A stretch of 64,000 nucleotides of DNA from NCBI GenBank assembly GCA_030670545.1, contig DAOVBM010000001.1, positions 17,932 through 81,931 on the forward strand, given 5' to 3'. Below the pieces are notes generated by a model. The model was given only the letters and a program-made list of their open reading frames with translations. It had not been told where the DNA came from and searched no databases. Origin of the DNA: Candidatus Woesearchaeota archaeon (GTDB lineage Archaea > Nanobdellota > Nanobdellia > Woesearchaeales > JAGLGH01). Positions 37,673 through 41,094 of the stretch are shown piece after piece (position 1 is the stretch's first letter; each line of letters starts with the position of its first letter). Both the position numbers and the translations under genes were made by a program.

Positions 37673-38908
37673 CTATATGTCCTGGATATTGATAGGTTTG
37701 ATGTTTTCCAATTTTTGGCTGTTGAATAAATGCTTATCAAGCTGTTCATGCCAATAGAGCCTGAAAATGTTTTTGGATTTTTTTGTTTCAGGATGATAAT
37801 TTTTATTTATAAGATACTCTTTTACATCATAAGATGGAATTATTCTTTCGCTTGCTACATCCATAACAACAGCGTCAGGATAATCCCTGAAGAAATTTTC
37901 AGGAAGCCCAAGGCTTGCGTTGTCTGTGTTTGCATCATAAAACCGCTTTAATGTAAGTTTCATAACCTCCTGTGGGTGGAAATATCTGATGTCTGAAGCA
38001 TGTTTATATATGAGGTCAATGTTCCTGCTCTTGAATGCATTTCCAAGAATCTTTTGATATTTTGGCCTCAATACTCCTGGGATTTCCGCAATATCCTCAT
38101 GTATATCCCCCAATGGTGACAAGAATATTTTTTTAGCTTTTTTCTCATCGACAAAAAACCTTATGATGGATTTGCTAAAACTGCCTTGTGTAAAATCATA
38201 GTCTGTAAAGCTGATATCACACACTAAGAGATAATAAATTTTGTTTAAAAAATAGCCACAATCATCTACATTAAGTGATTTCCTATCAACAATTGCAGCT
38301 GTTGTTGGGATATCACTATCAATACTGAAATTATTTTTCTTAACAGCATCAAGAAAATATTTCCTGTCCCTTAAAGTAATTTCAGGCGCAATAATCTCAT
38401 GCAATGGCTTGCCTTCAGCCTGAAGCGATTCTGCAGCAGGAGTGTCAAAAGAATATATCTTTGATTTTATCCTTGAAATGAGCATGTTTTCAAGTGTCAG
38501 CTTGCTATCTTTTTTTTCTGCAAAGCCAGAAGATATCTTTGAAGTCAATTCCTTTAACTCATCATCAATATTTTTTCCTGCATAATCTATTGCCATAAGC
38601 ATGGATGCGGCAGGCATGCCTGTAGCGAGTGACACTTCCACTTGTGGTTTTTGGTGCAGTATAGATATAAGGCCTTTGATGTTTTGAAGAATATCTGGTT
38701 TTTGCATTGGAAAGTTATATGTCTTACCAAGCCAGAGATATCCATCTGCAGTGATATTTTTTGATAGAACACTATACTTATTCAGGTTCTCTGCCTTTTC
38801 TTGCAGATATAACCTGCAAGTGTCAAGGTTGCTAAGATAATGGTCTTTGGCTTTTCCTTCAAGCTTTATGATTTCTTCCATTTTCTTTTCTTCACATAAG
38901 ATCAACAA
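37673..38908 (-). CDS. Hypothetical protein (411 aa).
   Basis: Continuous ORF, co-oriented and closely spaced with its neighbours. Confidence 0.5.
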   Translation of the reverse strand: MLILCEEKKMEEIIKLEGKAKDHYLSNLDTCRLYLQEKAENLNKYSVLSKNITADGYLWLGKTYNFPMQKPDILQNIKGLISILHQKPQVEVSLATGMPAASMLMAIDYAGKNIDDELKELTSKISSGFAEKKDSKLTLENMLISRIKSKIYSFDTPAAESLQAEGKPLHEIIAPEITLRDRKYFLDAVKKNNFSIDSDIPTTAAIVDRKSLNVDDCGYFLNKIYYLLVCDISFTDYDFTQGSFSKSIIRFFVDEKKAKKIFLSPLGDIHEDIAEIPGVLRPKYQKILGNAFKSRNIDLIYKHASDIRYFHPQEVMKLTLKRFYDANTDNASLGLPENFFRDYPDAVVMDVASERIIPSYDVKEYLINKNYHPETKKSKNIFRLYWHEQLDKHLFNSQKLENIKPINIQDI

Positions 38909-39605
38909 TCTGGTGATAAATCACATTTATTTTTTCGAGTGCGCCTTCAATGTATGCAGCTATATTTTTATCATCTTTAAGAGACATTCTGCTTTGCTCA
39001 GCAGAAATTTCTATGAGCTTAAGATTCTGCAGTCTATTTTCATACTGCTTTGCATTATTTCGCGCAGCATTGTCTGCATCTTCTTTTTTTCTTTTGAGGC
39101 AGTGGTATTTTTCTATGATTAAGATATAATTCTTGTCTTCCCTGTCTATCTGGCCTTTTTCTGCTTTAATATGGTTATATGCTTCTCTTGCAGTATCGCG
39201 TCTTTCGACAAGTTCTTCAAGCAGGGATTTTTGTGATTCCAGATCATTGCGCATCCTGCGCATCTGTATCTCTATTTTCCTGACATTATCTGATTTGAAT
39301 ATAAGCTCATCCTGGAGTTTATCCTTTGCATTGCCCAGATACCCTATAAGATAATTGAATTGTTCCAGATTTCTGTCATACTCTGCTTTTTTGCTGCTGT
39401 CTATGTCCCAGCTTGTTTTAGAATCATTTTGATTCACAGGCTGCATCATCCATTCTTCAGCTTCATTAAGTTTGGATAAGAGTTCAGAATAATATCCATT
39501 AAGATTGCCTAATCCTTTAAGACTGATGATGGAAATTTTTGAGTTATTGCCGGCCTTATTCATCTCATGCATCATCTTTATCTGATTCAAAAATACCACT
39601 TTCAT
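38892..39605 (-). CDS. Coiled-coil protein (237 aa) of unknown function.
   Basis: Heptad-rich, charged helical composition; overlaps its neighbours. Confidence 0.5.
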   Translation of the reverse strand: MKVVFLNQIKMMHEMNKAGNNSKISIISLKGLGNLNGYYSELLSKLNEAEEWMMQPVNQNDSKTSWDIDSSKKAEYDRNLEQFNYLIGYLGNAKDKLQDELIFKSDNVRKIEIQMRRMRNDLESQKSLLEELVERRDTAREAYNHIKAEKGQIDREDKNYILIIEKYHCLKRKKEDADNAARNNAKQYENRLQNLKLIEISAEQSRMSLKDDKNIAAYIEGALEKINVIYHQIVDLM

Positions 39606-40707
39606 TCTTTCCTATGTCTATGATCTGCTCTTCAAGGCGTTTTGGTTTGTATCCTTGATCCTGGCTGTTTATGATGTTATCAATGAGTGTGTCCTCCTTT
39701 ACATGTCTTCTTTGCATTTCCTGCCGGTGATCATCGCTTAAGGCCCGGACAACCTCAATTGTCGTGTCTTCTATAAAATTTTCCCCGATTCTTTCTGTAG
39801 CAACCTTGCTGACACCTCTTGCAACTGCAGTGATAGCAATCATGGCAGGGTTAAATGTGTCTTTAAGCATATCATGAGCTTCCAATGCCTTTACCTGAAA
39901 TTCTGCTAGATCTGCTGCTGAGGATACCTGATCAAAAAGAGGTTTGAGTGATTCAACACTGTTCTGCAATGTCTCATATAGGTTTTTTCCTTCTGAGAGC
40001 ATTATCACGCTTTCATCCCTAAGGCTTTCAAGAGCATCAAGAAGGTTTAATCCATTATTGTATTTGTTCAGGGCTGATGACCTTAGCCTGGATGCTTCTT
40101 CCAGCTGTCTTTTTGTTTTAATAATAGTTTTCTTAATGTCAAGATAATCTGTAGTTTGCTTGTCTGAAGCTGCCAATTGGGTTTCAAGGTCTTGCAGCGC
40201 ACCCTCATACTGCTTCTTAAATTGATCCTGCTTTCCCATTTCGCTAACGTATTTTTTTGAATCTTTGATAAGGTCCCCAAACAAAGTATCAACATCTTTA
40301 AAATCAGAATGGTAATCTTCAATCTTTATGTTGAGGTTTGAATAAATGCCCTCAGCATCATTGACAAGAGTATCCAGCATTTTTCCAAACCTTTTTCTGG
40401 TAGGATCCTGCCTTTTTGCTAATCCTGGCAGTGTAGAAAAGAATGCTTTAAATTTATCATAAGTTTTCAGGTCACCATTATTCTTTTCCATTTTTCTTGC
40501 TTTAATCTCATATTCATTAGTCACTTCTTCAAAGAATTCTTTTGTATTGCCGTGCCATGTCGCTACTTTGGTCTTTACCTTATTCATGTATTCCAATGCT
40601 TCCTCAAGCTCCTGCCTGCCCTCGCTTAATGTGTCTTTGACCCTTGTTTCTGTGGTGATGAGCGCAGAATTATTCTGCACATTCCCCTGATTGTAAGGTT
40701 GTTTCAT
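39565..40707 (-). CDS. Long alpha-helical coiled-coil protein (380 aa) of unknown function.
   Basis: Helical low-complexity composition; in the same operon. Confidence 0.5.
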   Translation of the reverse strand: MKQPYNQGNVQNNSALITTETRVKDTLSEGRQELEEALEYMNKVKTKVATWHGNTKEFFEEVTNEYEIKARKMEKNNGDLKTYDKFKAFFSTLPGLAKRQDPTRKRFGKMLDTLVNDAEGIYSNLNIKIEDYHSDFKDVDTLFGDLIKDSKKYVSEMGKQDQFKKQYEGALQDLETQLAASDKQTTDYLDIKKTIIKTKRQLEEASRLRSSALNKYNNGLNLLDALESLRDESVIMLSEGKNLYETLQNSVESLKPLFDQVSSAADLAEFQVKALEAHDMLKDTFNPAMIAITAVARGVSKVATERIGENFIEDTTIEVVRALSDDHRQEMQRRHVKEDTLIDNIINSQDQGYKPKRLEEQIIDIGKNESGIFESDKDDA

Positions 40708-40743
40708 TTTTTAATTCCTCGCTGTATTTGTTTTATGATTTTA

Positions 40744-41094
40744 TTATCTTTTAGATTGCTGCTTTTTCCTGACACGTGGGTCATAGATGTACTTTTTTGC
40801 TGCATAGCCAAGTAATGCAAGAGCTGCTCCACCAGAACCTGTAACAACAGGAAGAATCACGCCAGCTGCATAGCCAATGCCTGTTACAATTGTGCATTTA
40901 ACCCCAGTTTCAACTATTCCTGGTCTTGTGTATGCCTGATGTATAACCTTATCCATCAATCCGCCTTCTTTTTGTTCCTGTTCCTTATTCTGCCTGTTTA
41001 TAGTGTCATCAAGTGTGCTTAATTGTTGATCCAATACTTTTTCATAATCTACCATCTTAACTGTCCTCCCTGTTTTTGCTTGCTGATATTGCAT
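40744..41094 (-). CDS. Small membrane protein with a C-terminal glycine-zipper TM hairpin (TGIGYAAGVILPVVTGSGGAALALLGYAA) and a coiled-coil N-terminus.
   Basis: GxxxG-rich hydrophobic segments. Confidence 0.5.
   Translation of the reverse strand: MQYQQAKTGRTVKMVDYEKVLDQQLSTLDDTINRQNKEQEQKEGGLMDKVIHQAYTRPGIVETGVKCTIVTGIGYAAGVILPVVTGSGGAALALLGYAAKKYIYDPRVRKKQQSKR

Follow-up and report, generated by a model that had tools for sequence, protein, structure and literature searches.

A lineage-restricted nine-gene operon of DPANN archaea with a putative hairpin membrane protein and a candidate ClyA-like helical component

Results

Gene content and organization of the locus

A 64,000-nucleotide stretch of a Candidatus Woesearchaeota genome (contig DAOVBM010000001.1, positions 17,932 to 81,931; called the window below) contains a minus-strand block of nine genes that we analyze here. 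In the direction of transcription, it begins with genes for a small membrane protein (TM), two helical proteins (CC1 and CC2) and a soluble protein of a new family (X402). An initial annotation of the DNA had placed the four open reading frames (ORFs) on this strand between 37673 and 41094, in agreement with the ORF list. Five more co-directional ORFs follow beyond X402 and extend the block to 31728, encoding a DUF6638-family protein and four paralogs of one another (PAR). The operon represents a system restricted to DPANN lineages, with occurrences in metagenome-assembled genomes (MAGs) of Woesearchaeota, Pacearchaeota and Nanoarchaeota.

The first gene of the block encodes TM (40744..41055, 103 amino acids, aa). 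Its ORF reaches back to 41094, which would give 116 aa, but the true start is most likely the ATG at 41055, because a ribosome-binding site (GGGAGGA) lies 8 nucleotides (nt) upstream of it, the homologues begin at M(V/A)DYKK and the Logan gene call is likewise 103 aa long. CC1 (39565..40707, 380 aa), all-helical and the best-conserved member, comes next. It is followed by CC2 (38892..39605, 237 aa), which is probably helical as well and may start at M15 (39563), as in the homologous locus L008, for a length of 223 aa. The ORF of X402 (37673..38881) extends to a TTG at 38908, corresponding to 411 aa; the true start is most likely the ATG at 38881, and the resulting 402-aa sequence is identical to NCBI protein P0001. 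Directly after X402 lies the first PAR paralog (p1, 36402..37643, 413 aa), then the DUF6638-family protein (35181..36239, 352 aa), a core member of the cluster, and finally three more PAR paralogs (31728..35188; 428, 417 and 311 aa). All nine genes are on the minus strand.

Spacing is tight throughout. TM and CC1 are 36 nt apart, the CC1 and CC2 ORFs overlap or abut, X402 is separated from the first paralog by 29 nt, and 8-nt overlaps link the last four genes, so that the 162 nt ahead of the DUF6638 gene are the sole sizeable gap of the block. Two overlaps or near-abutments of ORFs had been reported among the first four genes. The one between CC1 and CC2 (39565/39605) holds, as overlap or abutment, whereas the one between CC2 and X402 (38892/38908) disappears if X402 starts at 38881, because a 10-nt gap then separates it from the upstream gene. 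Spacing and collinearity speak for a nine-gene operon that runs from 41055 to 31728, with TM, CC1, CC2 and X402 as its promoter-proximal half. The original proposal of one or two operons agrees with this, since the tight single-strand spacing fits one, and there would be two if the 162-nt gap held an internal promoter. The label "downstream module", which had been given to the four genes, is misleading, since transcription of the block would begin with them, which makes them its upstream part. They are real genes and not chance ORFs, because each has homologues at 30-78% identity, in the same order, in other genomes. The surroundings in the window are archaeal housekeeping genes (NOG1-type GTPase, IMPDH, peptidase U32, ArgRS).

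Searches of all nine proteins against Pfam, NCBIfam, PADLOC and PHROGs returned no functional family, only DUF6638 and coiled-coil noise. Nothing scored below E 0.008 in PHROGs or below E 0.01 in PADLOC-DB v2 (best E 0.016, over a 28-residue stretch), and neither Pfam nor NCBIfam revealed a nuclease, protease, NAD-ase or other effector domain. PDB sequence and profile searches with CC1, CC2, X402, DUF6638 and PAR were empty or gave coiled-coil noise. The statement that the block has no annotatable domain was thus nearly right, the exception being the 352-aa protein, which passes the Pfam threshold for DUF6638 (PF20343; 30.2 bits vs a cut-off of 27, E 2.7e-7, profile positions 15-254 of 439). 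Its orthologues in other loci were pre-annotated with the same family, of which the DPANN proteins are marginal members that leave the C-terminal half of the profile unmatched. A literature search on DUF6638 or PF20343 found no paper, and the family has no known function. The same 352-aa protein had been counted in the paralog array; by sequence comparison, it is not a paralog.

The small membrane protein

Hydropathy analysis finds a membrane-grade hydrophobic stretch in TM only among the nine proteins. The Gly/Ala-rich hydrophobic C-terminal segment that had been described for this protein is real: it covers residues 65-98 of the 116-aa ORF and reaches a KD19 of 1.83. Across 13 aligned family members, a Gly/Ala-rich segment with a central (L/I)P is followed by the motif GKK(F/Y)(I/V)YDP and a basic tail, giving a layout of N-terminal helix, Gly/Ala-rich hydrophobic hairpin, motif and tail. 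The hydrophobic segment with its central (L/I)P, the motif behind it and the basic tail suggest a helical glycine-zipper hairpin with both ends in the cytoplasm. Pfam searches with the 13 members gave no recurrent match. In all loci classified, TM lies directly 5' of CC1.

Distribution, synteny and invariant core

All named relatives of the module proteins are from MAGs assigned to Nanoarchaeota, Woesearchaeota or Pacearchaeota. Among 5.8 billion clustered proteins, there were three homologues of X402, 22 of CC1 and nine of DUF6638, and a HMMER profile search with the CC1 alignment returned 16 proteins from 1.84 billion representatives. The other phyletic counts come from searches seeded with words or motifs. 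A motif-based scan of one genome per species (185,579 species) recovered three loci, its exact-motif design making only the close clade detectable. Scanning of metagenome contigs added no locus to those already found, and no relatives turned up among IMG/VR viral contigs, a phage collection and a plasmid collection.

Every ORF of the homologue-bearing contigs was classified with hidden Markov models built from the families. In all close loci that are long enough, the order is (UP280)-TM-CC1-CC2-(PAR)-X402-PAR(s)-DUF6638-PARs, where UP280 is a protein of ~280 aa ahead of TM that is absent from the window and from L002. This collinear order occurs in 10 loci, which stem from different MAGs: the window, L002, L004, L006, L008-L011 and, partially, L001 and L003. 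We looked for scattered, unlinked occurrence of the genes in other genomes, which the initial annotation had named as evidence against a module, and found the homologous loci of sufficient length, L016 included, to be strictly collinear. KH/FmrO genes precede the cluster and topoisomerase VI genes follow it in L002 and L006, and eIF-1A is found further upstream in L006. The upstream KH/FmrO/eIF-1A genes are kept in L004 and L016, with further genes intervening (one in L016), and the contigs of both end before any gene downstream of the cluster. Directly upstream of the cluster in L004, a Lake Tanganyika Woesearchaeota contig, are seven tandem paralogs of ~100 aa (6634-8696) that share LPPTKAETAE.RLEE and YPDGFE; the window has none of them.

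Four loci are distant variants. L013 consists of TM, CC1, two short proteins, an X402-like protein and DUF6638. L012 has two copies of TM, CC1, an X402-like protein, a classical-clade AAA+ ATPase, a 548-aa protein and a DUF6638-like protein; its ATPase is closest to Cdc48 and AFG2, with no Vps4 chain among the 60 matches listed. In L016, TM and CC1 are followed by a CC2 with extra C-terminal repeats, a fusion of X402 and DUF6638, and then PARs. L017, from Pacearchaeota, contains UP280, TM, CC1, X402, one PAR, two GHKL-type ATPases (HATPase_c_3 and sacsin domain; sacsin- or Hsp90-like) and DUF6638. PAR and CC2 are variably present in these four variants, and the core persists in all of them, so that TM, CC1, X402 and DUF6638 make up the invariant core, in most cases with CC2 as a fifth part. 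The boundaries of the unit therefore differ from those drawn originally: the conserved core extends into the supposed paralog array, and it is the paralogs that the unit can do without. We consider the linkage and the definition of the core solid, but not the function, which is taken up in the Discussion.

CC1 and CC2

CC1 is predicted to be about 85% helical, in line with the helical character originally ascribed to it. Mean column identity is 58% over 19 sequences. The most conserved motif, LKxTFNPAMIAITAVAKGVSKVATE (residues 281-305), coincides with the sole hydrophobic peak of the family (residues 285-303, KD19 1.03 vs a mean of -0.79), and the protein carries an acidic C-terminal tail. 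An AlphaFold2 model built from the 19-sequence alignment is all helix and of medium confidence (predicted local distance difference test, pLDDT, 64; predicted template modelling score, pTM, 0.43), with scores of 88-93 for the hairpin 136-263. In the secondary-structure string of this model, the hydrophobic helix 285-303 is placed between H186-263 and H314-347.

The best full-length structural matches to this medium-quality model were, with two programs, bacterial alpha-pore-forming toxins of the ClyA family. Foldseek listed AhlB or SmhB at all of the top 13 positions, followed by XaxB, AhlC, NheA, ClyA and MakA; the E-values of these ClyA-family matches are 6e-4 or worse, and the TM-scores are low. 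The second comparison also had AhlC, NheA and XaxA among its matches. At the sequence level, HlyE, Bacillus_HBL and related families gave no match to CC1 in Pfam/NCBIfam at E up to 1, and no ClyA-family chain appeared in PDB sequence and profile searches at E up to 10. We also considered a WXG100 or type VII secretion identity and rejected it, as PF06013 scored 12.5 bits vs a cut-off of 27.3 and TIGR03930 14.6 vs 44.85, the G of "WHG" is not conserved in the CC1 family, and the region is modelled as one continuous helix.

CC2 follows CC1 in every close-clade locus and is probably paralogous to it. In hhalign, the C-terminal half of CC2 aligned with the central hairpin of CC1 over 89 columns (E 8e-4 but probability 25%), and the CC2 of L002 matched CC1 in BLAST at 31% over 81 aa (E 2e-5). 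This marginal similarity suggests that the C-terminal half of CC2 may be homologous to the CC1 central hairpin. The CC2 of L016 (11205-12485) is extended at its C-terminus by repeats that, judged by eye, resemble a beta-propeller.

X402, DUF6638 and the PAR proteins

Alignments of X402 show the conserved motifs KLEGxxKxxYLxNL and RIKSKIYSFDT, and the protein has no Pfam or PDB match. Its fusion to DUF6638 in L016 (12532-14889, 785 aa; X402 at residues 5-363, DUF6638 at 415-782) speaks for joint action of the two proteins. The idea that X402, DUF6638 and PAR are distant paralogs of one another was rejected, as BLAST and hhalign comparisons were negative.

The PAR paralogs have conserved N- and C-terminal domains, and a middle part that is variable or absent. 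In a neighbour-joining tree of 25 PAR proteins, the sequences group mostly by operon position across genomes, with few lineage-specific duplications; p1, for example, is positionally orthologous to L004 13869-15071 and L010 4348-5568. Such positional orthologous groups are more readily explained by subunits that differentiated long ago than by an array of cassettes in rapid evolution, and we regard the PAR proteins as accessory subunits. Their last ~55 residues also end the 1000-aa GHKL-type ATPase of L017, and BLAST alone (E 8e-5) aligns the PAR C-terminal part with the end of the 548-aa L012 protein. The shared terminal module may serve for docking.

Two further observations concern PAR sequences in the window. 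The PAR junctions at 32640-32670 and 33885-33915, with their 8-nt overlaps, are nearly identical in DNA (…cttgtacgggaagtgag[tc]atggATGGATGAAGAA), a pattern suggestive of translational coupling and of a recent event of duplication or gene conversion. Some 4 kb upstream of the operon, a 106-aa ORF (45066-45386, minus strand) contains a 47-residue PAR-like motif, EIL..GKHF..F..L.E..QK (hmmsearch E 2e-8 against one sequence), which could mark either a small domain also present in PAR or just a stray fragment.

Other features of the window

The region between the operon and a divergent gene for a CxxCxxCC-domain protein (41230-41420) has an unusually stable predicted RNA fold of -68.4 kcal/mol (z = -5.55, 0/200 shuffles as good). 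It consists of two hairpins with the same GCCC-UUUA-GGGC stem-loop cap, has no Rfam match and might function as a terminator for both directions, as a binding site for a protein or as a small RNA. Directly upstream of the operon (42296-44960, minus strand), two Fic-domain genes surround a small toxin-antitoxin pair that looks to be of the RelE/ParE type. In L017, Fic and toxin-antitoxin (DUF2283/DUF4258) genes are likewise found upstream of the cluster.

Farther away, the minus strand encodes a giant protein of 3877 aa with the bacterial Ig-like domains Big_3_3 and Big_13 (1324-12957), followed by a 391-aa Ig-like protein (152-1327). Such proteins have been described as surface adhesins in DPANN archaea. 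The strong AT and GC skew at 16-18 kb is accounted for by an ORF (16817-17833, plus strand) for an extremely acidic protein, in which an E/T-rich unit of 20 residues recurs about six times in tandem (60-nt period, 88% matches). A CNNM + CBS + CorC_HlyC protein of the TlyC/CorC type (18574-19809, minus strand) is unrelated to the operon. Between 48001 and 52000, the GC content is 0.25-0.29 vs about 0.37 elsewhere, and the ORFs have no Pfam match; this segment may be foreign DNA.

Discussion

The gene set described here matches no described system and is new as a system, so that the original designation of the locus as a candidate undescribed system stands. A literature search on pore-forming or ClyA-like proteins in DPANN archaea found nothing relevant. 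The "pore-forming toxin" that has been reported in DPANN MAGs is TlyC (K03699), a CNNM/CBS protein that is unrelated to the operon (PMC9723730, 2022).

Together, our data tentatively favour a model, which we consider possible, in which the operon encodes a membrane-inserting helical-bundle complex of ClyA-like design that is nucleated on the hairpin protein and has X402-DUF6638 and PAR as cytoplasmic partners. CC1 and CC2 would be a two-component pair of the ClyA type, alpha-helical and membrane-inserting, and would be produced as soluble helical bundles. TM would recruit them to the membrane, where the conserved Ala/Gly-rich hydrophobic helix of CC1 would engage the bilayer to form a pore or a membrane-perturbing assembly. 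X402-DUF6638 and PAR would control or load this assembly; in the distant variants, AAA+ or GHKL ATPases would replace or join them, with a role in assembly or remodelling. As the hosts are episymbionts, a function at cell-to-cell contact would be plausible.

Several features of the operon bear likeness to the ClyA family (YaxAB/XaxAB, AhlABC/SmhABC, NheABC/Hbl, MakABE). CC1 has about the size of a B component (360-400 aa) and is predicted to be an elongated multi-helix bundle. Its one conserved hydrophobic element is placed, by the model, between the fourth and the last long helices, and this position is a suggestive match to that of the membrane element in ClyA-family toxins (PMC6162564). A shorter helical partner, CC2, adjoins it, and the marginal homology between the two is suggestive of that among the toxin components. 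The hydrophobic hairpin and the basic tail of TM also fit the model. Like the mak operon, which encodes the cytosolic accessory paralogs MakC and MakD (PMC11484084), the nine-gene operon would encode paralogous cytosolic proteins of unknown role. There are also differences. CC1 and CC2 lack sequence or profile similarity to the toxins, are archaeal and DPANN-restricted and have no known export route, and the hydrophobic element of CC1 is shorter and weaker than the toxin foot domain. The obligatory linkage to the hairpin protein, X402 and DUF6638 is found in no toxin operon, and the loci comprise nine to twelve genes, compared to one to five.

Other observations weigh against the ClyA-like model more directly. 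No sequence or profile link connects CC1 to the ClyA, Hbl or Xax families, and its hydrophobic segment is not only weak (KD19 1.03), but also contains charged residues in the distant relatives L012 and L013. None of the proteins has a signal peptide, and CC1 and CC2 lack a hydrophobic N-terminus; export to a target membrane is therefore unexplained. CC2 is not recognizable in L012, L013 and L017; X402, DUF6638 and PAR have no assignable fold; and the ATPases of the variants fit a remodelling machine equally well. The allusion to pore-forming modules in the initial annotation thus receives weak-to-moderate structural support, from a model with a pLDDT of 64 and with no link at the sequence level.

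The main rival, which we regard as somewhat unlikely, is a non-lytic machine that scaffolds or remodels the membrane. CC1 and CC2 would form a polymer along the inner side of the producing cell's membrane, where the hairpin protein would anchor them, with PAR proteins as structural subunits and, in some lineages, chaperone-type AAA+ or GHKL ATPases for assembly or disassembly of the polymer; division, vesicle budding or the building of a host-contact structure are possible roles. The missing signal peptides are no difficulty for such a machine, whose soluble parts would all be cytoplasmic, and the Cdc48/AFG2-like AAA+ ATPase of L012 and the sacsin- or Hsp90-like ATPases of L017 would have a place in it. 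So would the ancient positional groups of PAR, which resemble subunits of a hetero-oligomer, the acidic C-terminal tail of CC1 and the conserved location among housekeeping genes. In its parts, the operon recalls PspA/LiaH-LiaI and ESCRT-III/Vps4: a helical CC2 of ~230 aa and a larger CC1 stand beside a small membrane anchor, the soluble parts are probably cytoplasmic and one variant has a classical-clade AAA+ ATPase. However, no Vps4 chain is among the matches listed for this ATPase, and the window's operon has no ATPase at all. PspA, Vipp1, ESCRT-III, BAR and SPFH proteins were found neither by sequence nor among the structural matches listed, and a PspA or ESCRT-III identity was rejected, as there was no PspA_IM30 or Snf7 profile match either. 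Moreover, for a core machine it would be odd that the family is so rare even in DPANN archaea (16 in 1.84 billion proteins, 3/185,579 species genomes by motif scan).

Rarity and sporadic distribution favour a conflict system for defence or antagonism between cells, which comes next after the scaffold and which we think unlikely. CC1, CC2 and TM would then be a membrane-disrupting effector or sensor, and the PAR proteins, with their variable middle region, interchangeable effectors or adaptors that are joined through the shared docking module, with NTPases driving the variants. The Aravind group has reportedly described NTPase-centred conflict systems with effector-associated adaptor domains, and the operon resembles these in having one short terminal module in several otherwise different proteins, a GHKL ATPase included, next to coiled-coil and membrane components. 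The variant GHKL and AAA+ ATPases give weak, generic PADLOC matches to TmtA and TRIP13, and the Fic genes and toxin-antitoxin pairs that adjoin the window's operon and precede the L017 cluster point the same way. Yet no adaptor or effector domain is recognized, none of the nine proteins has a PADLOC match below E 0.01, and most loci, including the window, lack an ATPase. Upstream synteny with eIF-1A/KH/FmrO in four divergent lineages, and topoisomerase VI after the cluster in two, do not describe a defence island, and the PAR proteins mostly form old orthologous groups instead of fast-turnover cassettes. That the operon is what remains of a virus or other mobile element, such as a module for lysis or egress whose small membrane protein would be holin-like, is very improbable. 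A small membrane protein beside helical proteins is superficially like a lysis cassette, and the distribution is rare, but the PHROG searches gave nothing below E 0.008, viral, phage and plasmid collections contain no relatives, no integrase, capsid or terminase gene is nearby, and the chromosomal position between housekeeping genes is conserved.

Returning to the ClyA-like model, a more far-reaching version of it would make the operon the first archaeal ClyA-like two-component perforating apparatus, built from the cytoplasm on a glycine-zipper anchor and opening a channel or bridge at host contact, with X402-DUF6638 as gatekeeper and PAR as docking subunits or translocated cargo. In this strong form, we consider the proposal decidedly improbable.

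Much of the diversity of archaea falls into DPANN lineages, whose members live in attachment to other cells, and we know of no explanation for how they breach, or couple to, the membrane of a partner. Their genomes have a size of about 1 Mb, of which the operon occupies roughly 9-13 kb, and it is therefore probably important to its hosts. If the resemblance to the ClyA family is borne out, CC1 and CC2 would represent a known fold in a new, archaeal variant, and if the ClyA-like model is true, the range of a toxin fold would come to include archaea and a cell-biological use other than as a toxin. Should the model fail, the operon still defines five new protein families and provides the first genomic context for DUF6638, and it offers a defined set of nine proteins for testing.

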